This document shows positions 1-57,304 of a stretch of 64,000 bases of DNA, piece after piece. The notes under the pieces are model-generated. The model did not search any database. It worked only from the letters and a program-made list of their open reading frames with translations, and was not told the DNA's origin. The position numbers were made by a program, and so were the translations under genes. Within the stretch, counting starts at the first letter, position 1; each line of letters begins with the position of its first letter. The stretch lies in the NCBI RefSeq assembly GCF_056746865.1, contig NZ_CM163382.1. One strand, 5' to 3'.

Positions 1-3000
1 GAAGCGGCAGTCTTTACTATTCACGGTTTTTGCCAGCGCATGCTCAACCTGAATGCCTTTGAATCCGGCATGCTGTTTGAGCAGCAGCTGATTGAAGATG
101 AGTCTCTGCTACGCTACCAGGCCTGCGCCGATTTCTGGCGTCGCCACTGCTACCCGCTGCCGCGTGAAATTGCCCAGGTCGTCTTTGAAACCTGGAAAGG
201 ACCGCAGGCGTTGCTGCGCGATATTAATCGTTATCTGCAAGGCGAAGCGCCGGTTATCAAAGCGCCGCCGCCCGATGATGAAACGCTGGCTTCCCGCCAC
301 GCGCAAATTGTGGCGCGTATTGATACGGTAAAACAGCAGTGGCGCGACGCGGTGGGTGAACTGGATGCGCTGATCGAATCTTCTGGTATTGATCGACGCA
401 AGTTTAACCGTAGCAATCAGGCTAAATGGATCGACAAGATCAGCGCCTGGGCAGAAGAAGAGACCAACAGTTATCAGTTACCGGAGTCGCTGGAAAAATT
501 CTCTCAGCGTTTCTTAGAAGATCGCACGAAAGCCGGGGGGGAAACCCCGCGACATCCACTGTTTGAGGCGATCGATCAACTGCTTGCAGAACCATTGTCG
601 ATCCGCGATCTGGTGATCACCCGCGCATTGGCTGAGATCCGCGAAACAGTAGCGCGTGAAAAACGCCGCCGTGGCGAATTGGGTTTTGATGACATGTTAA
701 GTCGGCTCGATTCCGCGCTGCGTAGCGAAAGCGGAGAGGTGTTGGCAGCGGCGATCCGTACGCGATTCCCGGTGGCAATGATCGATGAATTTCAGGATAC
801 CGACCCCCAGCAGTACCGAATTTTTCGCCGTATCTGGCACCATCAGCCGGAAACCGCATTGTTGCTGATTGGCGACCCGAAACAGGCCATATATGCATTC
901 CGGGGTGCGGATATCTTCACTTATATGAAGGCGCGTAGCGAAGTTCACGCCCACTACACTTTAGATACCAACTGGCGCTCCGCACCAGGAATGGTGAACA
1001 GCGTGAATAAGCTTTTCAGTCAGACTGATGACGCGTTCATGTTTCGCGAAATTCCTTTTATTCCAGTGAAATCAGCCGGGAAAAATCAGGCGTTACGTTT
1101 TGTGTTTAAAGGTGAAACGCAGCCTGCGATGAAAATGTGGCTGATGGAAGGCGAAAGCTGCGGCGTTGGCGACTATCAAAGTACCATGGCGCAGGTATGT
1201 GCTGCGCAAATCCGCGACTGGCTACAAGCCGGACAGCGGGGCGAAGCGTTGCTGATGAACGGCGACGACGCGCGTCCGGTGCGTGCTTCGGACATCAGTG
1301 TGCTGGTGCGCAGCCGCCAGGAGGCCGCTCAGGTGCGCGATGCCTTAACGCTGCTGGAAATCCCTTCCGTTTACCTTTCGAACCGCGACAGTGTTTTTGA
1401 AACTCTGGAAGCGCAGGAGATGCTTTGGCTGTTGCAGGCGGTGATGACTCCCGAACGTGAGAACACCCTGCGCAGTGCGCTGGCAACGTCAATGATGGGG
1501 CTGAATGCGCTGGATATTGAAACGCTGAATAATGACGAACATGCGTGGGATGCGGTAGTCGAAGAGTTCGATGGTTATCGGCAAATCTGGCGCAAACGTG
1601 GCGTTATGCCGATGCTGCGGGCGCTGATGTCGGCGCGTAACATTGCTGAAAACTTGCTGGCAACGGCAGGCGGTGAGCGGCGTCTTACCGATATCTTGCA
1701 TATCAGCGAACTGCTACAAGAAGCCGGAACGCAGCTGGAAAGTGAACATGCGCTGGTACGCTGGTTATCGCAACATATCCTCGAGCCAGACAGTAATGCC
1801 TCCAGCCAACAAATGCGCCTCGAAAGTGATAAACATCTGGTGCAGATTGTCACGATCCATAAATCAAAAGGGCTGGAATATCCGCTGGTCTGGTTGCCAT
1901 TTATTACCAATTTCCGCGTCCAGGATCAGGCGTTCTATCACGATCGCCACTCGTTTGAGGCTGTTCTGGATCTTAACGCTGCGCCAGAAAGTGTCGATCT
2001 CGCGGAGGCCGAACGTCTGGCGGAAGATCTGCGTTTGCTTTACGTGGCGCTGACGCGTTCGGTTTGGCATTGCAGTCTCGGCGTTGCACCGCTGGTGCGC
2101 CGTCGTGGCGATAAAAAAGGTGACACCGACGTCCACCAAAGTGCGCTCGGGCGTTTGCTGCAAAAAGGGGAACCGCAAGATGCGGCAGGACTTCGCACCT
2201 GTATTGAAGCGTTATGCGATGATGATATTGCCTGGCAAACGGCACAAACGGGTGATAACCAGCCCTGGCAGGTTAATGATGCTATAACTGCAGAACTGAA
2301 TGCGAGGACACTACAACGATTGCCCGGCGATAACTGGCGTGTCACCAGCTACTCCGGTTTGCAGCAGCGTGGTCACGGTATCGCTCAGGATCTGATGCCA
2401 CGGCTGGATGTTGATGCCGCAGGCGTGGTCAGCGTCGTTGAAGAACCGACGTTAACACCGCATCAGTTCCCGCGCGGTGCGTCACCGGGGACATTCTTGC
2501 ACAGTTTGTTTGAAGACCTCGATTTTACCCAGCCGGTTGACCCGAACTGGGTACAGGAAAAACTGGAACTCGGCGGCTTTGAATCGCAGTGGGAACCGGT
2601 GTTGACCGAGTGGATCACGGCTGTCCTCCAGGCACCTCTCAATGAAACGGGTGTTAGCCTGAGTCAGCTTTCCGACCGCGATAAACAGGTGGAGATGGAG
2701 TTTTACCTGCCGATTAGTGAACCGCTCATCGCCAGCCAGCTTGATGCACTAATTCGCCAGTTTGATCCGCTATCCGCTGGCTGCCCGCCGCTGGAGTTCA
2801 TGCAGGTACGCGGCATGTTAAAAGGCTTTATCGACCTGGTATTCCGCCACGAAGGGCGTTATTACCTGCTCGACTATAAATCCAACTGGCTGGGTGAAGA
2901 CAGTTCGGCTTACACCCAACAGGCTATGGCAGCGGCGATGCAGGCACACCGCTATGATCTGCAATATCAGCTTTATACCCTGGCGCTGCACCGTTATCTG

Positions 3001-3177
3001 CGCCATCGCATTGCTGATTACGACTATGATCGTCACTTTGGCGGCGTTATCTATCTGTTCCTGCGTGGCGTTGATAAAGAACATCCGCAACAAGGGATTT
3101 ACACAACCCGACCCAACGCCGGGTTGATTGACCTGATGGATGAGATGTTTGCCGGTATGACCCTGGAGGAGGCGTAA
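1..3177 (+). CDS. recB: RecBCD helicase/nuclease subunit RecB, 5'-truncated by the window edge (about 1045 C-terminal codons present)
   Basis: Open frame runs from position 1 (track ORF 40..3177); protein recognised as RecB; stop TAA overlaps the recD ATG by 1 nt; synteny with recD. Confidence 0.95.
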
Positions 3178-5003
3178 TGAAATTGCAAAAGCAATTACTG
3201 GAAGCTGTGGAGCACAAACAGCTACGCCCGCTGGATGTGCAATTTGCCCTGACCGTGGCGGGAGATGAACATCCTGCCGTCACCCTCGCGGCAGCCCTGT
3301 TAAGCCACGACGCCGGGGAAGGGCATGTCTGTTTACCGCTCTCACGACTGGAAAATAACGAGGAGTCACATCCGCTGTTAGCAACCTGTGTCAGTGAAAT
3401 CGGTGAGTTACAAAATTGGGAAGAATGCTTGCTGGCTTCACAAGCGGTCAGCCGGGGAGATGAACCAACGCCGATGATCCTCTGTGGTGATCGTCTTTAT
3501 TTGAATCGCATGTGGTGTAACGAGCGCACAGTGGCACGCTTTTTCAACGAAGTGAATCATGCCATTGAGGTTGATGAAGCTCTACTGGCGCAAACCCTGG
3601 ACAAACTTTTTCCAGTAAGCGATGAAATTAACTGGCAAAAAGTTGCGGCGGCAGTGGCGCTGACGCGGCGGATCTCGGTGATTTCCGGCGGCCCTGGCAC
3701 CGGTAAAACGACCACCGTAGCGAAGTTGCTGGCAGCGTTAATTCAAATGGCAGACGGCGAACGCTGCCGTATCCGTCTGGCTGCACCAACGGGTAAAGCT
3801 GCCGCGCGCTTAACCGAATCTCTCGGCAAGGCTTTGCGCCAGTTACCGCTGACCGATGAACAAAAGAAACGCATTCCGGAAGATGCCAGCACTTTGCACC
3901 GATTGCTGGGTGCGCAGCCGGGTAGCCAGCGTTTACGTCATCATGCCGGTAACCCGCTGCATCTTGATGTGCTGGTGGTAGATGAAGCGTCAATGATCGA
4001 TCTGCCTATGATGTCGAGACTGATCGACGCCTTGCCCGATCATGCGCGAGTGATCTTTCTCGGCGATCGTGATCAACTGGCTTCGGTTGAGGCTGGGGCA
4101 GTGCTGGGCGATATCTGCGCTTATGCCAATGCCGGCTTTACCGCCGAGCGTGCCGGGCAGTTGAGCCGCCTGACGGGAACTCACGTTCCGGCAGGAACTG
4201 GCACAGAAGCGGCATCTTTGCGCGACAGTCTCTGCCTGCTGCAAAAAAGCTATCGTTTCGGCAGCGATTCTGGCATTGGTCAGTTAGCTGCGGCGATCAA
4301 CCGTGGTGATAAAACGGCAGTGAAAACCGTTTTTCAGCAGGATTTTTCTGATATCGAAAAACGGCTTTTACAGAGCGGCGAAGATTATATTGCGATGCTT
4401 GAGGAAGCTCTTGCGGGTTACGGACGTTATCTGGATCTGCTGCAAGCGCGTGCCGAGCCGGATTTAATCATTCAGGCGTTCAATGAGTACCAGCTTTTGT
4501 GCGCCCTGCGGGAAGGGCCGTTTGGCGTGGCTGGACTGAATGAGCGAATTGAGCAGTTTATGCAACAGAAGCGCAAAATTCATCGTAATCCGCACTCTCG
4601 TTGGTACGAAGGCCGACCGGTGATGATTGCCCGTAATGACAGCGCGCTTGGGTTGTTTAATGGCGATATCGGTATCGCTCTGGATCGTGGGCAGGGGACG
4701 CGCGTCTGGTTTGCGATGCCGGACGGCAATATTAAGTCTGTGCAACCGAGTCGCTTGCCAGAGCACGAAACTACGTGGGCGATGACGGTACATAAATCGC
4801 AGGGATCGGAGTTCGACCATGCGGCGTTGATTTTACCGAGCCAACGCACGCCGGTAGTAACACGAGAGCTGGTTTACACCGCGGTGACCCGCGCGCGTCG
4901 CCGTCTGTCGCTGTATGCCGATGAGCGCATTTTAAGTGCGGCAATTGCCACGCGCACCGAGCGGCGCAGCGGTCTGGCGGCGTTGTTTAGTTCACGGGGA
5001 TAA
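3177..5003 (+). CDS. recD: RecBCD subunit RecD (5'-3' helicase)
   Basis: 608-aa ORF with Walker A motif GGPGTGKTT; start overlaps recB stop. Confidence 0.95.
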
Positions 5004-5064: not shown

Positions 5065-6396
5065 TTACCCCAAATCCGCCATCAACACTTTGGATTTACG
5101 CTGGTAGTTGTACAACTGCTTTTTGCTCTCGGGCAGTAAATCAATATCCACTGGGGTAAATCCACGTTCCTGGAACCAGTGAATACTGCGCGTGGTCAGC
5201 ACAAATAATTTGCTTAAGCCGCTCTGCTTCGCCTGAGCGGCAATGCGTTCCAGCAGAACCTCGCCCCGTGATGAACTGCGGTAATCCGGGTGAACTGCCA
5301 CACAGGCCATTTCCCCAATCTTCTCTTCCGGGAAAGGATAGAGCGCGGCGCAGGCAATAGTCGTGTTATCGCGCTGAATAATGGTGAATTTGTCGATTTC
5401 CATCTCCAGCTGCTCGCGAGAACGGCGTACCAGAATACCTTGCTGCTCCAGCGGGCGAATCAACTCCAGAATACCGCCAATATCATTGATTGTTGCGCGA
5501 CGAATCTGCTCGGCGCTTTCCATCACAATCTGCGTACCGATACCGTCGCGTGAGAACAACTCTTGCAATAGCGCGCCATCTTCCTGATAACTGATTAAAT
5601 GACAGCGACGCACGCCGCTGCGGCAGGCTTTCACTGCGCCACGCAAAAAGCGCACCGTACCGGAGTTGTAATCGCCTTTCTCTTCCTGGGCTTCTACCCG
5701 CGCTTGCGCTTCGTTAGGGAAAAGTTCGGAGACAATATCACCGTCGTCATTAGTGACGCCCTGGGAAGAGCAAAAACCAATCATCTTTTCAGCTTTCAGT
5801 TTGATGGCCAGTTGAGTGGCAATCTCTTCCGAGGTCAGATTAAAGCTCTCGCCAGTGACTGAAACAGCGACCGGCCCCATTAGCACTATTGCACCGCTGT
5901 CCAGTTGACGATGGATCGCGTCTTCATCAATCCGCCGGATACGCCCGCTATGGCAGTAATCCACGCCGTCATCGACGCCCAGCGGCTGGGCGATAATAAA
6001 ATTGCCACTGACGACGTTGATATGCGCGCCCTGTAGCGGCGTGTTATTGAGACTCATCGACAGGCGAGCAGTAATATCCAGTTGCAATGTTCCCGCAGCC
6101 TGCTTCACCAGTTCCAGTGTTTTGGCGTCGGTCACACGTATATTCTTGTGATACAGCGGTTCGTGGTGATGCGCAGCCAGATTTGCGTCGATCTGCGGAC
6201 GTGCGCCATAGACCACCACCAGACGGATGCCGAGGCTGTGCAGCAACCCGATATCATTAACGATACTGGAGAAATTCTCATGCTCAATGGCTTCACCGCC
6301 GAGCATGATGACAAACGTTTTTCCCCGGTGGGTATTGATATAGGGAACCGAATGGCGGAATCCCTCGACCAACTCGGTTTTACGTTCCTTTACCAC
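5065..6396 (-). CDS. argA: N-acetylglutamate synthase (443 aa from a GTG start; track ORF extends 22 codons further upstream)
   Basis: Protein recognised as ArgA; GTG at 6394-6396 preceded by an AGAGG Shine-Dalgarno; track ORF 5065..6462. Confidence 0.9.
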
Positions 6397-6410
6397 GGCA
6401 CACCTCTTTG

Positions 6411-6447
6411 CATGATTATTCGAAATTATTGTATTTTTATTCTGTTT
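6411..6447 (-). promoter_or_regulatory. Candidate pair of ARG boxes (ArgR operator) upstream of argA
   Basis: Minus strand reads cAGAATAAAAATAcAATaa and ttcGAATAATCATGCAaa, two adjacent 18-mers resembling the TGAAT-wwww-ATTCA ARG-box consensus; argA is a known ArgR target. Confidence 0.4.
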
Positions 6448-6627
6448 TTTCGCAGGGTGCAAGTGTAAATTTTATGCGAGAGCGACTTTTTTATCAGTAA
6501 TGCCGTGAATATAAAAAGAATGTTTACCGTTTATTAGATGACAGATTATGCGTCTTTCGCTAAAGTTTCCGGTCAAATTAGTCGTTTACTTGTTACACAG
6601 CTTAGATTTCTTTTGCTCGGGAGAGGC

Positions 6628-7881
6628 ATGTCAGGATCCAACACTGCAATCAGCCGTCGTCGTTTACTGCAAGGCGCGGGTGCCATGTGGCTATTGAGCG
6701 TAAGTCAGGTCAGTCTGGCTGCGGTCAGCCAGGTCGTGGCGGTGCGCGTCTGGCCTGCGTCCAGCTACACCCGCGTGACGGTAGAATCAAATCGTCAGCT
6801 GAAATATAAGCAGTTCGCGTTGAGTAACCCGGAACGCGTGGTGGTGGATATCGAAGATGTAAACCTGAACTCGGTACTCAAGGGGATGGCGGCACAAATT
6901 CGTGCAGACGACCCGTTCATCAAGTCGGCGCGCGTCGGGCAATTTGACCCGCAAACCGTACGCATGGTTTTTGAATTAAAGCAAAACGTAAAACCGCAGC
7001 TGTTTGCCCTTGCGCCGGTCGCCGGGTTTAAAGAGCGTCTGGTGATGGACCTCTATCCGGCTAATGCACAGGATATGCAGGACCCGCTGCTGGCGCTGCT
7101 GGAGGATTACAACAAAGGCGACCTCGAAAAGCAGGTGCCGCCAGCACAAAGTGGTCCACAACCGGGTAAAGCAGGGCGCGATCGTCCGATTGTTATTATG
7201 CTTGACCCTGGCCACGGCGGCGAAGACTCCGGTGCGGTGGGGAAATACAAAACGCGCGAAAAAGACGTGGTATTGCAAATAGCTCGCCGTTTGCGCTCTC
7301 TGATCGAGAAAGAGGGCAATATGAAGGTGTACATGACGCGCAATGAAGACATCTTCATTCCGTTGCAAGTGCGCGTAGCAAAAGCCCAGAAACAGCGTGC
7401 CGACCTGTTTGTCTCTATCCATGCCGACGCCTTTACCAGTCGCCAGCCGAGCGGTTCCTCTGTGTTTGCGCTCTCAACCAAAGGTGCAACCAGTACTGCG
7501 GCAAAATATCTGGCACAAACCCAGAACGCCTCGGACTTGATTGGTGGCGTGAGCAAAAGCGGTGACCGCTATGTCGACCACACCATGTTCGATATGGTGC
7601 AGTCGCTGACCATTGCCGACAGCCTTAAGTTTGGTAAAGCGGTGCTGAATAAGCTCGGTAAAATCAACAAGCTGCATAAAAATCAGGTTGAACAGGCCGG
7701 GTTTGCCGTGCTGAAAGCGCCTGATATTCCCTCCATTCTGGTCGAAACGGCGTTTATCAGTAACGTTGAGGAAGAGCGTAAACTGAAAACGGCGACCTTC
7801 CAGCAGGAAGTTGCGGAGTCTATTCTTGCGGGGATTAAAGCGTATTTTGCCGATGGGGCGACGCTGGCGAGAAGGGGATGA
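6628..7881 (+). CDS. amiC: N-acetylmuramoyl-L-alanine amidase AmiC (Tat signal RRRLLQGAG)
   Basis: Track ORF 6538..7881; start taken at the ATG at 6628 preceded by GGGAGAGG; twin-arginine signal and amidase_3 domain recognisable. Confidence 0.9.
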
Positions 7882-45409: not shown

Positions 45410-47062
<1,653 letters not shown>

Positions 47063-47133
47063 GAAAAAAGTTAGAACGGCAACGCGTACCCTGGGTACGC
47101 GTTGTTTGTCTGGAGTTTCAGTTTAACTAGTGA

Positions 47134-48447
<1,314 letters not shown>

Positions 48448-48465
48448 GTCTGACTTTATCTGATT

Positions 48466-48498
48466 TAAAAATGCCAGCCTTCGGGCTGGCATTTTTTA
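48466..48498. terminator. Bidirectional rho-independent terminator between eno and the TPM gene cluster
   Basis: aaaaa-tgccagcc-ttcg-ggctggca-tttttt; A-run before and T-run after a perfect 8-bp stem. Confidence 0.8.
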
Positions 48499-48506
48499 TG
48501 GTTGAG

Positions 48507-49424
48507 TTACCAGCGACCGGACGCGCCGCCACCGCCAGAAGAACCGCCCCCGCCGCTAAAGCCACCGCCTGAGCCTCCGCCACTTGAGCCGCCACCGGAA
48601 GAGGATGAAGAAGAACCTTTTCTTGAAGCTCTTTCTTTACCGAGCTTCTTGTATTTAGCGCGTAGCTTTTTATTAACGATAAGCCAAAAAATAAGCAGTG
48701 GTACGATGGCAAAAGGCGTGAGCATACCGCAGGCAACGATTAAATTGGTCCATGGTCCTGGCTCGGCAACATAGAGGAATACCATCCCGTAAATGGCGCC
48801 AGTGAGAGTGATCCAGGGTAAATTCGACGGATCGGTAAAAACAATAAAATATGAAAGTACCGCCAGCAATATAATTACAGCAAGCGATAATGGAATAAAG
48901 GGATTGATACTGTAATAATCCCCCCTGTCTTCCGATAATTCACCATTCAACAGAAGCGCGCCGATATTTTCGCTTGCCAGTGTTAATCCACCCATCAGGT
49001 CATCACTTTTGAAGGCAGGGATCAAAATATCTCTGATAATCTTCGCCGCTTGCAGGTCGGTAACCACCCCTTCCAGCCCGTAGCCAACCTCAATACGAAC
49101 AGCATGCTCCTCCCAGGCAACCAGAAGTAAAATACCATCGTTTCTCTGCTTATCTCCCAGTTTCCAGCTATCAAAAACGCGTGCTGCATATTGTTCAATG
49201 GAATCGTCTCCGGTGGACGGCACTACTAATACAGCGACCTGCGCCCGTGTTTTATGTGTAATATCCTGCAGCTGCTGCGTTAGCGATTGCTGTTCAGACG
49301 TGCTTAACGTACCAGTAATATCAGTCACTTGTTGGCGCAGCTCCGGCACAGCAATTTGCTGGGCAAGCCCGGGAAGGCTCCACAAAGCAAGTAGAATAAA
49401 GATTAAGCGCATTACGATCACCAA
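48507..49424 (-). CDS. TPM-domain (TLP18.3/Psb32/MOLO-1 family) membrane protein, paralog 1; ends in a Gly/Ser tail ...GGGGSSGGGGASGRW. Track start at 49424 is a TTG; the first ATG at 49412 (MRLIFILLALWSLPGLA) is the likelier start
   Basis: 305-aa track ORF: signal peptide, TPM domain, hydrophobic segments, low-complexity tail; adjacent to eno, the position of ygcG in K-12 as I recall it. Confidence 0.85.
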   Translation of the reverse strand: MVIVMRLIFILLALWSLPGLAQQIAVPELRQQVTDITGTLSTSEQQSLTQQLQDITHKTRAQVAVLVVPSTGDDSIEQYAARVFDSWKLGDKQRNDGILLLVAWEEHAVRIEVGYGLEGVVTDLQAAKIIRDILIPAFKSDDLMGGLTLASENIGALLLNGELSEDRGDYYSINPFIPLSLAVIILLAVLSYFIVFTDPSNLPWITLTGAIYGMVFLYVAEPGPWTNLIVACGMLTPFAIVPLLIFWLIVNKKLRAKYKKLGKERASRKGSSSSSSGGGSSGGGSGGGFSGGGGSSGGGGASGRW

Positions 49425-50566
49425 CGGCCGGATGAACCGCCGCCTCCTGAAGAACCGCCACCACCGCGGAAAGAATTTCTCGACGAAGAGCGAGAATGAG
49501 CATTACGATTCCCCGTTTTCCTGTTGCTTTTTTCTCCTGATCCCAGCTTAAGATTGCCAGTAAATTTGGCCACAATGATCAGCAGAACGATGCCAGCAAT
49601 GGTTATTGGGCCGATAAAATGATCAATTAACCCAATAATTGTTGAGATGAATGCAATATCTTTATTACTGGCGAACACCAGGCACCATCCCACAATAATT
49701 ATCAGCATCACGACAAACAATGAATTTCGTCCTGATTCACGAACCTGCGGAGTCTTCTTTTGTTTTTTCACTTTAGCGTTTTTATTTTTTGGGGTCAGCA
49801 TCATAGGAAATACGCGGCACATATTAAAAACTACCGCGAGACGCTGCTTGCAGGTTGTTGCTAACAATAAACTAAAACAAACGACCGATACCCGCCGAAT
49901 GATGACATCGTCCTGAAAGGAGAAAAACCAGACCATAGGGGTAATCATCGATATCATCCATATGCCACGCCCTGGGCGGCTGGCAAATCGCCAGAGGACA
50001 ACGATGGCAACGATCATCAGCAGTGTCCAGGCAAGACAAGGCAGCGAACGTTGCGGATTAGCAAACAGATGATTGGCTAAAGCATCCAAAGGGCTAAGGT
50101 TCGCTTTGATATGGGTAAACTGTGCGATGCTTTCAATTCCGCCCGTTAATCCAGCAAAGAGATTGTTTTTTTCGAATTCTGGCTGCATATGGTAACGAAC
50201 AATTTGCGAAGCTTGTTCCGGCGGCAACATCTGTTCCAGTCCATGTCCAATCTTCATTGACGCCAGCCCTTCCGGCCATACGACGAGAATTAAGATACCT
50301 TCGCCATATCGCTTCTCTCCAACGGGTTTCCAGTGATATACCCCGTATCTCTGCGAGGCTGCAAGTTTAATGTTTTTGCCCCCTGTGGTCGGCGTGACCA
50401 ACACGGCCACCTGGAAGTGGTTTTGCTGCTCGAGAGTCTGTAATTGTTGAGTTAAAGCAGTTTGTTCTTCTGTCGTTAATGTCCCGGTTAAGTCAGTTAC
50501 TGAAGGCAATTGTTCAGCGAATACCTGAAAACCGCATAGCATCAGAAGTAAGAGAAAAATACGCAT
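49418..50566 (-). CDS. TPM-domain-like membrane protein, paralog 2 (divergent, longer membrane region); ends ...GGGGSSGGGGSSGRW
   Basis: 382-aa ORF: signal peptide MRIFLLLLMLCGFQVFA, several hydrophobic segments, Lys-rich linker, Gly/Ser tail; stop lies 5 nt before the paralog 1 ATG. Confidence 0.8.
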   Translation of the reverse strand: MRIFLLLLMLCGFQVFAEQLPSVTDLTGTLTTEEQTALTQQLQTLEQQNHFQVAVLVTPTTGGKNIKLAASQRYGVYHWKPVGEKRYGEGILILVVWPEGLASMKIGHGLEQMLPPEQASQIVRYHMQPEFEKNNLFAGLTGGIESIAQFTHIKANLSPLDALANHLFANPQRSLPCLAWTLLMIVAIVVLWRFASRPGRGIWMISMITPMVWFFSFQDDVIIRRVSVVCFSLLLATTCKQRLAVVFNMCRVFPMMLTPKNKNAKVKKQKKTPQVRESGRNSLFVVMLIIIVGWCLVFASNKDIAFISTIIGLIDHFIGPITIAGIVLLIIVAKFTGNLKLGSGEKSNRKTGNRNAHSRSSSRNSFRGGGGSSGGGGSSGRW

Positions 50567-50580
50567 ATCAATTCCTTTTG

Positions 50581-51474
50581 TTACCAGCGCCCGGAAGCGC
50601 CACCGCCACCAGATGAACCGCCACCACCGCTGAAATTGTCATTGTTGAATGAAGAGGATGACGATGATGAATAGTGGGAGGAAGAATTGCTTCTTGTATG
50701 GCGTGATGGCTGGTTGGCATCACGCATCGAATCCCGAACCTTTTTGCCGAAGGGGGTAAAAGCGATGGCGACAGCCAGGAACGGTGTGGCGAAGCAGAGT
50801 AATGTTGCGAGTACTCCCCAGCTTCCGCTGAAGCCTGCTATAGGTAAAACAAAGGCCAGTACAATAGCTGCGAAGCAAATTACTCCCAGCGTTTTGATAT
50901 ATCCTCTGGCAGAAATAAACGTCAGTACTATCGCCCAGACTAACAAAGCCCACCAACCGCTAAAAGGCAAAGGGTGATCGGTCGGTGTTATCGTTGCTAA
51001 ATTATTCCCCGTCAGACGACTTTCAATATCGCTGATTCCCTTTTGCAAACCACCAGCCAGGTCCCCTTTTTTAAATGCCGGAATAATACTGTTGCGAATA
51101 ATTTTCCCGGACTGTGCATCCGTAATAATACCTTCCAGTCCGTAACCGATTTCAATACGCACGGTATGATCCTGCCAGGCGACTAACAGTAGAACGCCAT
51201 CATCGTGGTCTTTATCACCCGGTTTCCAGCTATCGAATACCCGCGTTGCGTACTGCTCGATGGTTTCATCGCCAGTTGTTTCAACCACTAACACGACCAA
51301 CTGTGCGTAGTTTTTTTGCGTCAGGGCTTTAATCTGGTTGGTCAGGGTGTTTACTTCGCTGTTTGTTAATGTGCCGGTTAAGTCATTCACATACTTGGGT
51401 GATTCAGGTACTGGAATTTGTGTGGCAAACACAGATGAACAGAAGAAAGCCATAAGGAAGATAAAATTTCGCAT
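50581..51474 (-). CDS. TPM-domain membrane protein, paralog 3; ends ...GGGGSSGGGGASGRW
   Basis: Track ORF 50581..51504; start taken at the ATG at 51474 (MRNFIFLMAFFCSSVFA), 13 nt after the LemA stop with a GGGGAAG Shine-Dalgarno-like sequence. Confidence 0.8.
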   Translation of the reverse strand: MRNFIFLMAFFCSSVFATQIPVPESPKYVNDLTGTLTNSEVNTLTNQIKALTQKNYAQLVVLVVETTGDETIEQYATRVFDSWKPGDKDHDDGVLLLVAWQDHTVRIEIGYGLEGIITDAQSGKIIRNSIIPAFKKGDLAGGLQKGISDIESRLTGNNLATITPTDHPLPFSGWWALLVWAIVLTFISARGYIKTLGVICFAAIVLAFVLPIAGFSGSWGVLATLLCFATPFLAVAIAFTPFGKKVRDSMRDANQPSRHTRSNSSSHYSSSSSSSFNNDNFSGGGGSSGGGGASGRW

Positions 51475-51487
51475 AGAACTTCCCCGC

Positions 51488-52090
51488 TTAATGAGCATTA
51501 GCATTCTGGCTAAAATCTATTGTTGGGGCTTTACTTACTGCGGCGACATCATCCGGCAAATAATTTTTCTTTGGTGTGTAATCCATGACCTTTGCGGTTA
51601 ACACAGCGGGGAATTTGCGGATAGTGACATTATATTGTTCAATGGCTTTAATATATCTTCCTCGCGCAACGGCAATCCGATTTTCACTTCCTTCAAGCTG
51701 TACCATTAAATTTTGATAGAGTTCCTGAGATTTTAACTCAGGGTAACGCTCACTAATTATCGTTAACTGACCGAGAGTGCGAGTCACCTGCGCTTGAGCC
51801 TGTTGCCAGGCTTGTAATTTTTGTTCATCGCCCGGAGTTTGCTGAAGATCGCTACTGGCGCGATTAGCCTGGCTACGAGCCAATGTTACGGCTTCCAGTA
51901 CATCTCGTTCATGGCTGGAATAACCTTTAATGCTGGCGACAAGATTAGGAATAAGATCGGCGCGACGTTGATATTGATTCAATACCTCAGACCAGGAGGC
52001 GTTAACCTGCTCATCATAGGTTTGAATATCGTTATATCCACAGCCTGATAAATTGAAAATAAATATAATTACGATGAATATTCTGAGCAT
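51488..52090 (-). CDS. LemA-family lipoprotein
   Basis: 200-aa ORF; N-terminus MLRIFIVIIFIFNLSGC has a lipobox (LSGC); LemA-like coiled region; first gene of the apparent LemA-TPM operon. Confidence 0.85.
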   Translation of the reverse strand: MLRIFIVIIFIFNLSGCGYNDIQTYDEQVNASWSEVLNQYQRRADLIPNLVASIKGYSSHERDVLEAVTLARSQANRASSDLQQTPGDEQKLQAWQQAQAQVTRTLGQLTIISERYPELKSQELYQNLMVQLEGSENRIAVARGRYIKAIEQYNVTIRKFPAVLTAKVMDYTPKKNYLPDDVAAVSKAPTIDFSQNANAH

Positions 52091-52262
52091 GTTTAAATCC
52101 CTTTTAATTAATTCCTTAAAACATAATACTCTGCTTCATTTTATTCTTTATGATCTAATCCACTTTTTGCCTTAAAACTGCCTGTAACAGAATGTTAATA
52201 AGACATGATTGTTGTGGCAGGATCTGCAATAATTAACAATTATCCACTTCACAGAGAATGCT

Positions 52263-52934
52263 ATGCAGTACCCGATTAACGAGATGTTCCAGACCCTGCA
52301 AGGTGAGGGTTACTTTACCGGCGTCCCCGCCATTTTTATTCGTTTACAGGGATGCCCGGTTGGCTGTGCCTGGTGCGACACCAAACACACCTGGGAAAAG
52401 CTTGAGGATCGGGAAGTCTCCCTTTTCAGCATTCTGGCGAAGACCAAAGAGAGTGATAAGTGGGGGGCGGCGAGCAGTGAAGACTTGCTGGCTGTCATTG
52501 GTCGCCAGGGATACACCGCGCGGCATGTGGTGATTACGGGTGGTGAGCCTTGCATTCATGATTTGCTGCCACTGACTGACCTGCTCGAAAAGAACGGTTT
52601 TAGCTGCCAGATCGAAACCAGTGGTACTCATGAGGTACGCTGCACACCGAATACCTGGGTTACCGTATCGCCAAAGCTGAACATGCGCGGCGGCTATGAA
52701 GTGTTGTCACAGGCACTGGAGCGAGCCAACGAAATCAAGCATCCAGTGGGACGCGTACGTGATATTGAAGCACTGGATGAACTTTTGGCGACGCTGACCG
52801 ATGATAAACCGCGAGTCATTGCACTGCAGCCGATTAGCCAAAAGGATGATGCCACACGATTGTGCATTGAAACCTGCATTGCTCGTAATTGGCGTTTGTC
52901 GATGCAAACACATAAATATCTAAATATTGCCTGA
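52263..52934 (+). CDS. queE: 7-carboxy-7-deazaguanine synthase (radical SAM)
   Basis: 223-aa ORF with Cys motif CPVGCAWCDT. Confidence 0.9.
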   Translation: MQYPINEMFQTLQGEGYFTGVPAIFIRLQGCPVGCAWCDTKHTWEKLEDREVSLFSILAKTKESDKWGAASSEDLLAVIGRQGYTARHVVITGGEPCIHDLLPLTDLLEKNGFSCQIETSGTHEVRCTPNTWVTVSPKLNMRGGYEVLSQALERANEIKHPVGRVRDIEALDELLATLTDDKPRVIALQPISQKDDATRLCIETCIARNWRLSMQTHKYLNIA

Positions 52935-53159
52935 TTAAACATTTATAAGCGTTATAAATGGGTGGAACCTGTAAAGATTTCTACTCATTTATATTGTTTG
53001 TCGCCTCTGAAAACTCCTCCATTTTACCCATCCAGGGCTAATCATTAGCATTCTCTACAAATTCTGCGGCATTAATTTTTCGCTGGAGTGAAAATTATTG
53101 CGGTAAAGTTTGGTAGATTTTAGTCGGTATAGGATTACTTTAAATATTTAGCTTTTCAA

Positions 53160-53273
53160 TCAATGGATTAAGTGCTCTTTAACATAATGGATGTGTTGTT
53201 TGTGTGATACTATAAAGTTGGTAGATTGTGACTGACTTAAAAAATCAATAATTAATAATAGGTTATGTTTAGT
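53160..53273 (+). promoter_or_regulatory. AT-rich CRISPR leader
   Basis: AT-rich tract immediately upstream of the first repeat, on the side opposite the degenerate terminal repeat. Confidence 0.5.
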
Positions 53274-53851
53274 GAGTTCCCCGCGCCAGCGGGGATAAAC
53301 CGTCTGGGCCGGATTCGATCCCGCGCGTACCGGAGAGTTCCCCGCGCCAGCGGGGATAAACCGTACAATCCCGCATCGAAACTGAATACCCCGATGAGTT
53401 CCCCGCGCCAGCGGGGATAAACCGTTGCCCAGGCTTTTGCGAAAATTTGTGATTTGGAGTTCCCCGCGCCAGCGGGGATAAACCGACACGGGGCAGATTG
53501 AGCAGGACTGCGACCTCGAGTTCCCCGCGCCAGCGGGGATAAACCGGCAGCAGATTTACAAACAGATCGGAGATTACTGAGTTCCCCGCGCCAGCGGGGA
53601 TAAACCGCGCGGCCTGCGCTCGCGTAAAATCAGTTGCAGGAGTTCCCCGCGCCAGCGGGGATAAACCGTCCGCGCAAGCCTATATAAACCAGATTGATCA
53701 GAGTTCCCCGCGCCAGCGGGGATAAACCGCGAAATCGCACGCGCTTCCCGCATGGGGGAAAGAGTTCCCCGCGCCAGCGGGGATAAACCGTGTAAAAGTC
53801 TTGGTTTTGGCGCATCATTTGTGAGTTCCCCGCGCCAGCGGGGATAAACCA
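53274..53851 (+). CRISPR. Type I-E CRISPR array: 10 repeats of 29 bp (GAGTTCCCCGCGCCAGCGGGGATAAACCG) and 9 spacers of 32 bp; the last repeat is degenerate at its 3' end
   Basis: Exact 61-bp periodicity; repeats start at 53274, 53335, 53396, 53457, 53518, 53579, 53640, 53701, 53762, 53823; no cas genes in the window. Confidence 0.95.
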
Positions 53852-54379
53852 CCATATAACCCGTTATCTCTTTCTCAAGTTTTTATATTAGCAGTACTCG
53901 TATTAAGCAATATATCCACGTAACACCTCATGTTCAAAATAGCTCTCCATATATGAGAAGTTCACAATTATCGATACAAAAAATCAAATTTAATTAAAGT
54001 GTTAGTTGTATGATACTTAAATCATTAAGAAATTATCATATATTATTTTTTTAATATTGAATTGATGTTTGTTAATTTTTTCTTTAGGATAGTAGTTTGT
54101 TTTTTAAGCTTATTATTCATTGATTAAGTAATAAATCTGGAAATTTGTCTTTGTTTTGAGGCTAATGAGTGGTTTTACATAATCGCCTCTATACGCTGTT
54201 GATGAATAGTTCTTATGAATAAAGATATCCAGTTCATACTTTAAGTGAAAATTGATAAAGTGCGATTCGTATTGTCTTTTATTCTAAATAGACTGGCCCC
54301 CTGAATCTCCAGACAACCAATATCACTTAAATAAGTGATAGTCTTAATACTAGTTTTTAGACTAGTCATTGGAGAGCAG

Positions 54380-54745
54380 ATGATTGATGTCTTAGGACCG
54401 GAGAAACGCAGACGGCGTACTACACAGGAAAAGATCGCTATTGTTCAGCAGAGTTTTGAACCGGGAATGACGGTCTCCCTTGTTGCCCGGCAACACGGTG
54501 TGGCAGCCAGCCAGTTATTTCTCTGGCGCAAGCAATACCAGGAGGGAAGTCTTACTGCTGTGGCCGCAGGAGAGCAGGTCGTTCCTGCCTCTGAACTTGC
54601 TGCTGCCATGAAGCAGATTAAAGAACTCCAGCGCCTGCTCGGCAAAAAAACGATGGAAAATGAACTCCTTAAAGAAGCCGTTGAATACGGGCGTGCAAAA
54701 AAGTGGATAGCGCACGCGCCCTTATTGCCCGGGGATGGGGAGTAA
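54380..54745 (+). CDS. insC: IS2 transposase OrfA (InsC), helix-turn-helix
   Basis: Track ORF 54335..54745; start taken at [13 protein letters not shown] (121 aa). Confidence 0.9.
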
Positions 54746-55608
54746 GCTTAGTCAGCCGTTGTCTCCGGGTGTCGCGTGCGCAGTTGCACGTCATTCTCAG
54801 ACGAACCGATGACTGGAAAGATGGTCGCCGCAGCCGTCACTCAGATGATACGGATGTGCTTCTCCGTATACACCATGTTATCGGAGAGCTGCCCACGTAT
54901 GGTTATCGTCGGGTATGGGCGCTGCTTCGCAGACAGGCCGAACTTGATGGTATGCCTGCGATCAATGCCAAACGTGTTTACCGGATCATGCGCCAGAATG
55001 CGCTGTTGCTTGAGCGAAAAACCGCTGTACCGCCATCGAAACGGGCACATACTGGCAAAGTGGCCGTGAAAGAAAGCAATCAACGATGGTGCTCTGACGG
55101 GTTCGAGTTCCGCTGTGATAACGGAGAAAAACTGCGAGTCACGTTCGCGCTGGACTGCTGTGACCGTGAGGCACTGCACTGGGCAGTCACTACGGGCGGC
55201 TTCGACAGTGAAACAGTACAGGACGTAATGCTGGGAGCGGTGGAACGCCGCTTCGGCAACGAGCTTCCGGCGTCTCCAGTAGAGTGGCTGACGGATAATG
55301 GTTCATGCTACCGGGCTAATGAAACACGGCAGTTTGCCCGGATGTTGGGGCTTGAACCGAAGAACACGGCGGTGCGGAGTCCGGAGAGTAACGGCATAGC
55401 AGAGAGCTTCGTGAAAACGATAAAGCGTGACTACATCAGTATCATGCCTAAACCAGACGGGTTAACGGCAGCAAAGAACCTTGCAGAGGCGTTCGAGCAT
55501 TATAACGAATGGCATCCGCATAGTGCACTGGGTTATCGCTCGCCACGGGAATATCTACGGCAGCGGGCCAGTAATGGGTTAAGTGATAACAGGTGTCTGG
55601 AAATATAG
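54703..55608 (+). CDS. insD: IS2 transposase OrfB (InsD), DDE catalytic domain; overlaps OrfA in the -1 frame (programmed frameshift arrangement)
   Basis: 301-aa ORF recognised as IS2 InsD. Confidence 0.9.
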
Positions 55609-55641
55609 GGGCAAATCCACTAAAGACATCGAGTGTAGTTA

Positions 55642-55780
55642 ATATTCCTTGTAAAAACAGGGATAAACCGAACTAGTTAAAGTTTTTATTATGTTCCCTG
55701 CATCAGCGGGGATAAACCGGACTTGTTATCATTTTTTAAGTTGTCGAACTTATGTTCCCCGCGTCAGCGGGGATAACCAT
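55642..55780 (+). CRISPR. Degenerate CRISPR array remnant (about 3 diverged type I-E repeats, 2 spacers)
   Basis: atattccttgtaaaaacagggataaaccg, atgttccctgcatcagcggggataaaccg and atgttccccgcgtcagcggggataaccat, in the same orientation as the main array. Confidence 0.6.
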
Positions 55781-55825
55781 TCAGGTACGTTCATGCCGGG
55801 CAGTTTCCCGCCCGGCCTTCCTCAC

Positions 55826-57304
55826 TTACGCATTCGACCAGCTCTGGATCGAATCCGCATTCCCCAATTCCCCATGCATCACTTCATACGATTTTTTCAG
55901 GATTACATCAGTATGTTTGGTTAACTCCTTGAAAATGCCTTTATTCATCGCGTCGTAGCGTTTGGCATTGTTCTCAACAGGCATAAAGATATCTTTCACG
56001 CGAACCATTTTGTCGACAGCCGTTGCGTAATCCGGGTATAGCCCCAGACCTACCGCCGTATTGATCGCTGCCCCCAGACTTGCACAACCATTAATGGCGT
56101 TACGGCGTGCCGGAAGGTTGAACACGTCGGCAAAAATCTGCATAAACAGATCGCTGTTCGAACCGCCGCCAGTAATGATCACATGTTTGGCAAAGTGATT
56201 CATTTCATTACACATATTGTCGTAATTGTTCTTCAGCGTCAGCGCCACGCTTTCCAGTATCGAACGATATATCCATGCGTAATCCATGCTGGAATCAAAG
56301 CCGATCATAATCCCGCGTTTGTACGGTTCCCACGGATTGGTCAGCCAGTCCAGCACCGTCATCAGACCATTACAGCCAGGCGGCACACAAGACGCTTTCT
56401 TGTTGAGTAAATCTTCCGGTGAAAGATCCTGTGCTTTGGCATCCTGAATTAACGACTCGCCTAACATGTCGCGCAGCCAGCTCACTGTCCACATGCCTTT
56501 GCGGATACCGTAACCTTCATACAGCAATGTTTGCGGAATAGAAGACATAATTGGCCAGTACGCCACCGGATCTTTCGGCAGTGCTTTGCCGTTCATCATC
56601 AATGCGATGTAAGTGCCAAGAGAAATTACCGCAGTTTCATTATCCAGTAATCCGGCCCCCAGAGCTTCTACCGGTTTATCACTGGTGGTACAAACAACCG
56701 GCAGTCCTGCCGGGAAATGTGTCGCCAGTGCGGCTTGTGGTGTGATATGTCCGAGGACGGTGCCAGGCATTTGCACATCAAAAAGCATATGACGGGGGAT
56801 ATTAAACTTCTCCATGACTGCGGCATCTTCACTCCATGCCCAGGTCTTATAATCCACCGGCCACTGACCAAAATAGTTGGCGATATTGTCTTTAAACTCG
56901 CCGGTTAAGCGATGCGTCAGATAACCTGAAAAAGAGGTGACATATGCCACGTCAGGATTCGTATGTTCGTAAGGGCGTGTAACGCGTGCATCCTGCCAGC
57001 TAATCAACGGCGCAGCTGGCGTGCCATCGGCTTTCAATAACGCACGGCAGCAACGGATGGATCCCAGACCAATACCGACAATATCTTCTTTATTCCCGGC
57101 AAACTGACTCATCAAATCGTGACCGGCAAAACATAATGATGCCCATAAATCGTCGTCAGGATGTTCTGCGGTATCGGCATCTGGCGTGTGCATCGGCTGC
57201 AATAAGCCTTTGCCTTCGCAAACCACATTACCTTCCAGATCATACATCACCACTTTTGTGCTCTGACTTCCGCCATCAATCCCTATGATGTATTTTTTCG
57301 ACAT
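55826..57304 (-). CDS. ygcE: FGGY-family carbohydrate kinase, substrate unknown
   Basis: 492-aa ORF with FGGY kinase N- and C-terminal domains. Confidence 0.9.
   Translation of the reverse strand: MSKKYIIGIDGGSQSTKVVMYDLEGNVVCEGKGLLQPMHTPDADTAEHPDDDLWASLCFAGHDLMSQFAGNKEDIVGIGLGSIRCCRALLKADGTPAAPLISWQDARVTRPYEHTNPDVAYVTSFSGYLTHRLTGEFKDNIANYFGQWPVDYKTWAWSEDAAVMEKFNIPRHMLFDVQMPGTVLGHITPQAALATHFPAGLPVVCTTSDKPVEALGAGLLDNETAVISLGTYIALMMNGKALPKDPVAYWPIMSSIPQTLLYEGYGIRKGMWTVSWLRDMLGESLIQDAKAQDLSPEDLLNKKASCVPPGCNGLMTVLDWLTNPWEPYKRGIMIGFDSSMDYAWIYRSILESVALTLKNNYDNMCNEMNHFAKHVIITGGGSNSDLFMQIFADVFNLPARRNAINGCASLGAAINTAVGLGLYPDYATAVDKMVRVKDIFMPVENNAKRYDAMNKGIFKELTKHTDVILKKSYEVMHGELGNADSIQSWSNA

Follow-up and report, generated by a model that had tools for sequence, protein, structure and literature searches.

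Organization of the locus

We analysed a stretch of 64,000 nucleotides (contig NZ_CM163382.1 of NCBI RefSeq assembly GCF_056746865.1; hereafter the window) in which a gene for a LemA-family lipoprotein is followed by three tandem genes for TPM-domain membrane proteins, designated TPM1, TPM2 and TPM3, at the junction between eno and queE. Comparison with other genomes indicates that this cluster is an old enterobacterial operon, of which Escherichia coli K-12 keeps a degraded form. The locus consists of the following features:

eno, 47149-48447, plus strand, flanking gene
Bidirectional intrinsic terminator, 48467-48500, both strands, hairpin GCCAGCC-TTCG-GGCTGGC with A and T runs on either side, common to eno (plus strand) and the TPM operon (minus strand)
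TPM3, 48507-49412, minus strand, 301 amino acids from ATG
TPM2, 49418-50566, minus strand, 382 amino acids, divergent middle paralog
TPM1, 50581-51474, minus strand, 297 amino acids from an ATG with GGGGAAG Shine-Dalgarno sequence
lemA, 51488-52090, minus strand, 200 amino acids, LemA-family lipoprotein
queE/lemA divergent intergenic region, 52091-52262, presumed operon promoter, homologous to the queE-yqcG region of K-12
queE, 52263-52934, plus strand, flanking gene

As a preliminary description of this DNA had proposed, all four genes between eno and queE lie on the minus strand, at the coordinates given above, and are packed like an operon. The stop codon of lemA is separated from the TPM1 start by 13 nt, and TPM2 and TPM3 continue the same tight array with spacers of 14 and about 5 nt. 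Under longer open reading frames (ORFs) these spacers turn into short overlaps; the longest ORF of TPM1 extends to 51504 (307 amino acids), and alternative GTG/TTG starts of TPM3 are possible up to 49424. The strong bidirectional terminator suspected earlier is backed by the folding energies of the 48467-48500 hairpin, which amount to -20.7 and -20.3 kcal/mol on the two strands (z = -5.0 and -6.3), none of 200 shuffled sequences being as stable. The same hairpin was overlooked by a scan for consensus promoters and terminators, whose promoter-like sites fell below chance expectation. GC content across the locus ranges from 38 to 51%; it is below that of the flanks and lowest at the lemA end. 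Rfam scan of positions 47000-56000 returned no match at gathering score.

LemA and the three TPM paralogs

Pfam search supports the LemA and TPM domain assignments of all four products. LemA matches PF04011 over the full model (E=5.6e-48, model positions 1-149 of 149), and its closest solved structure is TM0961 (PDB 2ETD, E=7.7e-32). Its signal peptide carries the lipobox L-S-G-C with Cys17 and Gly at +2, and the L(S/T)GC lipobox is invariant across 17 proteobacterial LemA homologues, so that the lipoprotein call made from the sequence stands; from the Gly at +2, sorting to the outer membrane would be expected. The mature part is predicted to be helical and, given the lipoprotein signal peptide, to form a membrane-tethered domain facing the periplasm. 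The AlphaFold2 (AF2) model contains three long helices (2-67, 72-104 and 106-152), with predicted local distance difference test score (pLDDT) of just 58-80. The MamQ model (NCBIfam NF040966) scored 89.9 bits on LemA, below its cut-off of 250 bits.

The three paralogs share the architecture suggested previously, i.e. signal peptide, TPM domain, membrane segments and tail. Their matches to Pfam domain PF04536 have E-values of 3.8e-40 (TPM1), 2.3e-21 (TPM2) and 1.2e-37 (TPM3), and their mutual identity is only 36-42%. In TPM1, a signal peptide with predicted cleavage after VFA17 is followed by a periplasmic TPM domain (approximately residues 29-151 of the 297-residue protein, corresponding to Pfam positions 39-161 of the 307-residue ORF). 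About three transmembrane helices come next, and a Ser-rich linker leads to the C-terminal sequence GGGGSSGGGGASGRW. In TPM3, signal peptide and TPM domain are followed by about three transmembrane segments, then by a basic segment and a Gly/Ser stretch, and the protein has the same terminus as TPM1; of the three paralogs it is the closest to the single TPM protein of Klebsiella quasipneumoniae. TPM2 has a signal peptide, a degenerate TPM domain, approximately three plus two transmembrane segments divided by a Lys-rich loop, and the tail GGGGSSGGGGSSGRW.

TPM1 is the paralog of which structure was modelled, and the model has TPM fold. AF2 assigned the TPM domain pLDDT of more than 93 and placed helices at 174-189, 194-209 and 218-239. 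The full-length model, based on 77 homologues, reached a mean pLDDT of 79 and a predicted template modelling score (pTM) of 0.62, with the Ser-rich linker (252-280) disordered. In Foldseek comparison the model gave a template modelling score (TM-score) of 0.89-0.90 with BA41 (PDB 5ANP); it also matches 7TBR, 2KW7, 4OA3 and 3PTJ, target TM-scores for the whole set being 0.75-0.90. The closest solved structures of the TPM domain are 7TBR, BA41 and PG0361. The Psb32 model (NCBIfam NF047379) produced scores of 33.7 and 31.2 bits, below the 160-bit cut-off, and no match in TPM2.

The divergence of the middle paralog, noticed in the preliminary description, is evident both from its weakest Pfam match and from residue conservation. 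With TPM1 as the reference row, conservation among LemA-linked TPM domains reaches 90% or more at 31 positions. TPM2 retains 16 of them, having lost D92, G115 and D119, whereas 24-28 are kept by the other TPMs compared (TPM3, K-12 YgcG, the TPM1 of haplotype B, and the Klebsiella and Brenneria TPMs), with 25 each in TPM3 and K-12 YgcG. Full-length homologues of TPM2 were found in Escherichia only. Enzymatic activity would not be expected of TPM2.

Across E. coli and Escherichia albertii, the ratio of nonsynonymous to synonymous substitution rates (dN/dS) is below 0.5 in all four genes of the locus. It amounts to 0.04-0.14 for lemA, 0.10-0.20 for TPM1, 0.25-0.46 for TPM2 and 0.14-0.17 for TPM3; the values for eno and queE are about 0-0.06. 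All four genes are under purifying selection, which is relaxed in TPM2.

The similarity of TPM1 to BA41, which is its closest match in both sequence and fold, raises the possibility that TPMs are periplasmic metal-dependent phosphatases or nucleotidases acting on a phosphorylated substrate, comparable with the ATPase/ADPase activity reported for BA41, and that the presence of LemA is incidental. The conserved Asp and Gly residues are present in TPM1 and TPM3, and in the parts of the literature covered here, phosphatase or ATPase activity is attributed to TLP18.3, BA42 and BA41. However, no consensus function of TPM is recognized in the literature (bioRxiv 10.1101/2024.10.28.620569), TPM2 is still constrained despite being devoid of D92, G115 and D119, and a soluble enzyme alone would hardly account for the strict linkage to lemA or for conservation of the transmembrane region and tail. 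We therefore consider this explanation unlikely.

One allele of TPM1 is interrupted. In O157:H7 strain DEC4E, a TTA-to-TGA change creates a nonsense codon at residue 225 of 297 (5401-5403 of its locus sequence, approximately position 50800 of the window). The 61-mer specific to this allele occurs exactly in 300 of 5,426 complete E. coli genomes, and the sampled exact matches include other O157:H7 strains. TPM1 is also labelled "partial, missing C-terminus" by the Prokaryotic Genome Annotation Pipeline (PGAP) in CFT073 and GCM74-1-1, despite intact ORFs of 307 and 311 amino acids (2594-3517 and 3502-4437 of the respective locus sequences, upstream start included); this label is probably an annotation artefact arising from alignment to the truncated O157 protein.

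Haplotypes among E. coli genomes

Distribution of the locus was determined in 5,426 complete E. coli genomes, 5,425 of which contained the flanks. Three haplotypes were counted, and the variability among strains expected from the sequence was thus found both in gene presence and in copy number. The four-gene block (at least 80% covered) is present in 1,102 genomes (20%), among them O157:H7, O55:H7, O145 and CFT073, and is therefore far from universal. The second haplotype, found in 340 genomes (6%), comprises lemA, one TPM1-like gene and an unrelated 120-codon ORF. The most frequent arrangement is the yqcG-ygcG pair of K-12 type (3,923 genomes, 72%). Taken together, lemA in any form occurs in 1,454 genomes (27%). 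The earlier statement that K-12 carries a single TPM gene at this junction proved right: just ygcG and the 46-codon yqcG are located there.

In the second haplotype, the ORF standing in place of TPM2 and TPM3 (3104-3466 of the GCM74-1-1 locus sequence) encodes a hydrophobic hypothetical protein of 120 amino acids with no similarity to TPM. Several E. coli genomes, one of them otherwise 100% identical to the window, have insertion sequence (IS) elements of IS4 and IS1 type inside the lemA/TPM or yqcG/ygcG locus or next to it. Every match to the locus in E. coli resides on the chromosome, and records labelled as plasmids were of chromosome size.

The haplotypes cut across clonal backgrounds: CFT073 has the four-gene form and a genome of sequence type 131 (ST131) is K-12-like. 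Both ST131 and CFT073 belong to phylogroup B2. In CFT073 the third TPM gene (547-1431 of its locus sequence) is chimeric, its first approximately 85 residues being of TPM3 type and the remainder of K-12 YgcG type. It follows that ygcG is allelic to TPM3 by position and that recombination between haplotypes has taken place inside the gene.

The yqcG-ygcG pair of K-12

In K-12, the DNA that extends from queE to nucleotide 68 of yqcG is colinear with the queE-lemA region of the window and the first 35 nt of lemA. The alignment has 85% identity over 225 nt (E=2e-70; window 52280-52056), is nearly identical in its queE-proximal portion, and reaches codon 12 of lemA and codon 23 of yqcG. In the window, a stop codon comes after the upstream ATG at which yqcG (3994-4134 of the K-12 locus sequence) starts. 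Past a 1-bp indel, the two frames encode ...TKIIFIF... in YqcG and ...IVIIFIF... in LemA, and the lipobox is lost in YqcG. Similarity of these peptides was reached by 4 of 5000 shuffles. Homology between K-12 and the window resumes in the last approximately 75 nt of ygcG/TPM3, which encode the tail motif, and in the terminator.

These alignments indicate that the first 23 or so codons of yqcG are a relic of the lemA 5' untranslated region or leader and signal-peptide codons (window 52056-52123). Homology of yqcG to lemA beyond codon 12 was considered and dropped, since the local score at DNA level did not exceed that of shuffled sequences; only the 5' part is claimed. Because yqcG reuses the leader and signal-peptide codons of lemA, and because outgroups possess lemA-TPM, K-12 represents a derived, degraded state of the locus. 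YqcG is currently annotated as "cell envelope stress response protein"; the "envelope stress" small protein of K-12 is accordingly reinterpreted as a by-product of lemA decay.

YgcG is about 41% identical to TPM3 and 37% to TPM1. As judged by these values, K-12 ygcG is not a sequence orthologue of any of the three TPM genes, being allelic to TPM3 by position. Formation of ygcG by recombination of TPM1 with TPM3 through deletion was rejected: YgcG is approximately 40% identical to all three proteins and homology at DNA level is limited to the lemA 5' end and to the tail and terminator. Search for YgcG homologues retrieved only E. coli alleles at 81-98% identity, which are uninformative on its origin.

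Ancestry of the operon

The same four genes occur between queE and eno in E. albertii. At the equivalent junction, K. quasipneumoniae has lemA and one TPM gene, the product of which is 48% identical to TPM3 including the transmembrane region. In Klebsiella spallanzanii, lemA is accompanied by two genes, one TPM1-like and the other TPM2-like but without TPM domain, and an array of clustered regularly interspaced short palindromic repeats (CRISPR) follows before eno. As these Klebsiella counterparts show, the three paralog types predate Escherichia.

The gene content of related species thus points to an ancestral enterobacterial lemA-TPM operon at the eno-queE junction, rather than to an acquired island, and the variability of the locus is best accounted for by differential loss and allelic replacement within this old operon. 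The preliminary description had regarded it as a strain-variable accessory locus. Variable it is, but an accessory island it does not appear to be, given its ancestral presence in E. albertii, K. quasipneumoniae and K. spallanzanii. An island inserted recently between eno and queE could explain why the genes are absent from K-12 and 72% of complete E. coli genomes, and why GC content is below that of the flanks, with its minimum at the lemA end. Yet lemA-TPM genes are carried at the same junction by E. albertii and Klebsiella, K-12 yqcG retains the leader and signal-peptide sequence of lemA, and neither integrase, att-like repeats nor mobility genes were found at the locus by inspection of the ORF list and by repeat analysis. 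The idea of recent acquisition is thereby largely refuted, and we regard it as highly improbable.

For comparison with other taxa, TPM and LemA profiles were run against 80 LemA loci from collections with one genome per species. Among the loci outside Escherichia, 57 extended for 3.5 kb or more on the downstream side. A single long TPM gene was located beside lemA in 46 of these 57 loci (about 50 after correction for ORF-calling artefacts and for TPM-lemA gene order), and two or three in none of them. Around half of other proteobacterial LemA loci contain an extra TPM of about 165 amino acids, which has no signal peptide or hydrophobic segment and ends with ...NELPDxPVVL. This small TPM is absent from the Escherichia and Klebsiella loci. 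The survey suggests that the canonical proteobacterial module consists of one lemA and one tail-bearing TPM gene.

Three long TPM genes are therefore unusual, as had been remarked, since none of the 57 other loci has more than one. The accompanying notion of a three-fold amplification fares less well if a recent event is meant. With no more than 36-42% identity among them, and with a Klebsiella counterpart of every type, the paralogs would rather represent an old set retained in one haplotype than a recent triplication.

We also weighed whether the locus is a decaying redundant array, in which at most one TPM is of importance and the remaining paralogs are in the process of being lost. Much of the variation described above is compatible with decay: the TPM1 nonsense allele in 300 genomes, relaxed constraint and loss of conserved residues in TPM2, absence of the TPM domain from the TPM2-like protein of K. 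spallanzanii, reduction to a lemA relic in K-12-type strains, and IS elements in the locus of several genomes. On the other hand, dN/dS below 0.5 holds for all four genes in E. coli and E. albertii, the three tails are intact and conserved, and ORFs are of full length in CFT073 and in the window strain. Progressive decay of redundant copies is, in our judgement, quite unlikely.

The C-terminal motif and its topology

TPM1, TPM2 and TPM3 all terminate in GGGGSSGGGG(A/S)SGRW. The coding sequences of this conserved motif are situated at the three gene ends:

C-terminal motif of TPM1, 50584-50628, minus strand
C-terminal motif of TPM2, 49421-49465, minus strand
C-terminal motif of TPM3, 48510-48554, minus strand

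At DNA level these copies constitute direct repeats of 55 nt (family D1) that are 75-84% identical. Far from being peculiar to the window, the motif is found in all 62 of 62 long LemA-linked TPMs, which end in [GF][FW][SG]GGGG[GSD][FS]GGGGASG[SRDG]W-COOH. Seven positions are always Gly, and Ala-Ser-Gly together with the terminal Trp are near-invariant. Within the surveyed LemA loci the motif is confined to TPM ORFs (65 of 4,029 ORFs). With TPM1 as query and 50% clustering, the family has 22,366 representatives if E<=1e-3 is required and 13,659 if the limit is E<=1e-10; about 139 of its 149 top representatives end in the motif. What had been described as a Ser/Gly low-complexity tail hence ends in a near-invariant motif and not in low complexity of the kind produced by drift.

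In 72 of 77 family members, the TPM domain and the tail are separated by about three transmembrane equivalents followed by a basic segment; TPM2 has five. Since the Sec signal peptide directs the TPM domain to the periplasm and the number of transmembrane helices is odd, the tail GGGGxxGGGGASGxW is predicted to be cytoplasmic, across the membrane from the TPM domain.

In the AF2 model of TPM1, the terminal motif forms a beta-strand (288-296), with pLDDT of about 96 over the last seven residues. All other strands belong to the TPM domain. Because these are the only other strands in the model, the modelled tail is probably docked on the TPM sheet.

CRISPR array and possible defence role

Downstream of queE, at 53274-53854, lies a CRISPR array in which the 29-nt repeat GAGTTCCCCGCGCCAGCGGGGATAAACCG recurs every 61 nt, in 10 copies or more. 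Similar repeat-like sequence is located between the TPM genes and eno in K. spallanzanii (approximately positions 5850-7130 of its locus sequence). The ORF directly after the array of the window (54335-54745) resembles the first frame of an IS3-family transposase, and the corresponding site of GCM74-1-1 has an IS3 element in the RefSeq annotation.

LemA matches PHROG 1383 ("virion structural protein"), and its homologues were observed in 40 phage records, mostly of Enterococcus and Listeria phages, with 28-48% identity among the matches listed.

A role in phage defence had been offered as speculation, and the locus could in principle be an anti-phage or abortive-infection module in a variable hotspot by the CRISPR array. 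Its presence/absence polymorphism with deep allelic divergence would suit such a role, as would the proximity of a type I-E array about 1.2 kb beyond queE, the array between the TPM genes and eno in K. spallanzanii, and the occurrence of LemA homologues in some phages, reflected in the PHROG match. Yet none of the four proteins has a match in PADLOC-DB 2.0 at E<=0.1, and domains typical of effectors, such as nuclease, NTPase or protease, did not appear in their Pfam search. Moreover, the locus is syntenic and ancestral in Escherichia and Klebsiella, the lemA-TPM pair is widespread across Proteobacteria (13,659 family representatives at E<=1e-10), and in E. coli it is purely chromosomal, genuine plasmids being absent among the matches. 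With purifying selection added to these results, the defence role finds no backing, and we judge it very unlikely. As the leading idea it was abandoned on the grounds that PADLOC gave nothing, that the PHROG match concerns LemA only and that phage LemA proteins come mainly from Enterococcus and Listeria phages.

Proposed function

LemA (PF04011) and YgcG-type TPM proteins are very widespread, and function has been assigned to neither family. In agreement with the preliminary description, by which the function of LemA-TPM pairs is not established, literature search yielded no functional study of LemA-TPM, ygcG, yqcG or this cluster. According to a recent preprint, TPM domains have no consensus function (bioRxiv 10.1101/2024.10.28.620569). 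Characterised TPM proteins are extracytoplasmic factors accessory to membrane complexes or to their assembly, namely Psb32/TLP18.3, CcoZ, a subunit of the mycobacterial supercomplex, and YdjH acting with PspA (PMC11237479, PMC8267372, bioRxiv 10.1101/2024.10.28.620569). For LemA-like domains, a role as membrane-proximal scaffold has been described, with MamQ and ML0451c as examples (bioRxiv 10.64898/2026.07.15.738315).

By analogy with these proteins, and only so, a mechanism can be outlined. LemA and the TPM proteins would form a membrane-associated assembly with LemA as its membrane-proximal scaffold. Periplasmic TPM domains would serve as accessory, assembly or maintenance factors for membrane complexes and may possess weak phosphatase or nucleotidase activity dependent on divalent cations, while the cytoplasmic tail would dock onto a conserved partner. 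The three paralogs would be an old set kept in about 20% of E. coli, of which other lineages lost one, two or, as in K-12, nearly everything.

Expression is probably tied to stress of the envelope or PhoPQ type, via the promoter region common to queE and yqcG. Annotation of the K-12 relic YqcG as an envelope-stress protein agrees with such a link. In K-12, phosphorylated PhoP (PhoP-P) binds DNA upstream of queE in a region that includes yqcG, and deletion of yqcG raises queE expression (PMC4974570). The window has kept the promoter-proximal sequence homologous to this PhoP-P-bound region. At 52090-52106 it also contains TGTTTAAATCCCTTTTA, a direct repeat that resembles a PhoP box with 2 mismatches and overlaps the lemA start; this repeat is no more than a lead.

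Taken as a whole, an ancestral LemA-scaffolded envelope operon with periplasmic TPM accessory factors and cytoplasmic tail docking is the interpretation we favour, and we hold it to be somewhat probable. Several points weigh against it. The match to the PhoP box at 52090-52106 is at chance level, the count of such matches in the whole window being equal to chance expectation. No experiment found in the literature ties LemA or any YgcG-family protein to a function. The AF2 model of a LemA-linker-TPM1 fusion, built from a paired alignment of 34 sequences, attained pTM of 0.50 and displays no confident interface. The system is dispensable, as shown by the 300 genomes with a TPM1 nonsense allele and by the lack of lemA from 72% of E. 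coli. Finally, the tail strand in the AF2 model, probably placed on the TPM sheet, conflicts with the predicted topology in which tail and TPM domain are on opposite sides of the membrane. One resolution may be docking of the tail, in trans, on the small cytoplasmic TPM encoded by canonical operons. Enterobacterial loci have no gene for the small TPM, yet their tails are perfectly conserved.

A more specific and, in our opinion, doubtful extension of the envelope-operon interpretation is that LemA and the tail-bearing TPM constitute a conserved trans-membrane module, in which the invariant tail would be a docking strand for the TPM fold or another cytoplasmic partner and would couple a periplasmic TPM/LemA assembly to the cytoplasm. 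If so, E. coli haplotypes with three paralogs, one paralog and a lemA relic would provide a ready genetic series for the study of two widespread uncharacterised families. The value of the locus lies in this natural allelic series, in the conserved tail motif and in the reinterpretation of yqcG, with cheap experiments in a model organism at hand.

Comparison with known systems

The operon does not reveal a new kind of system, and PGAP already annotates its products as "LemA family" and "TPM domain-containing". Fold matches of the TPM1 model include Psb32 and the subunit of the mycobacterial CIII2CIV2 supercomplex. Psb32/TLP18.3 (8C7I, 3PTJ), factors for repair and assembly of photosystem II, resemble the TPMs of the window in having a membrane-anchored TPM fold on the extracytoplasmic (lumenal) face. 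They differ by having no lemA partner; scores of the window proteins with the Psb32 model are far below cut-off, and E. coli has no photosystem. Psb32/TLP18.3 have a single C-terminal anchor and are not known to carry a Gly/Trp tail.

The mycobacterial CIII2CIV2 subunit and Campylobacter CcoZ likewise present a TPM fold on the periplasmic side, where they associate with respiratory complexes and affect their activity. Their identity to the window proteins is, however, 13-17%, and the operon is not linked to oxidase genes. Bacillus subtilis YdjH is encoded in the pspA-ydjGHI operon. In contrast, genes for pspA, band-7 and zinc-ribbon proteins are absent near the locus of the window, whose neighbours are eno, pyrG, queE and the CRISPR array, and the partner of the TPMs is LemA.

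On the part of LemA, similarity extends to MamQ, involved in magnetosome membrane biogenesis, and to ML0451c, a scaffold of PimA and EphE. These proteins have a LemA helical-bundle domain at the membrane surface, and a helical domain is predicted for LemA of the window. ML0451c acts on the cytoplasmic face, whereas LemA is predicted to be a lipoprotein facing the periplasm.

The K-12 yqcG-ygcG pair has in common with the window its chromosomal position, promoter-proximal sequence, terminator and the tail motif of YgcG. It differs in having no lemA, in the YqcG peptide being devoid of lipobox, and in YgcG being only about 41% identical to TPM3.

A further counterpart is the canonical operon composed of lemA, a ygcG-family TPM gene and a small TPM gene. 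BA41 (5ANP) and BA42 (4OA3) of Bizionia argentinensis represent its two TPM types. As in the window, lemA is followed by a TPM with signal peptide, about three transmembrane helices and terminal GGGGxxGGGGASGxW (46-50 of 57 loci). The window departs from this plan in having three tail-bearing TPMs instead of one, a degenerate middle paralog with five helices, and no small TPM.

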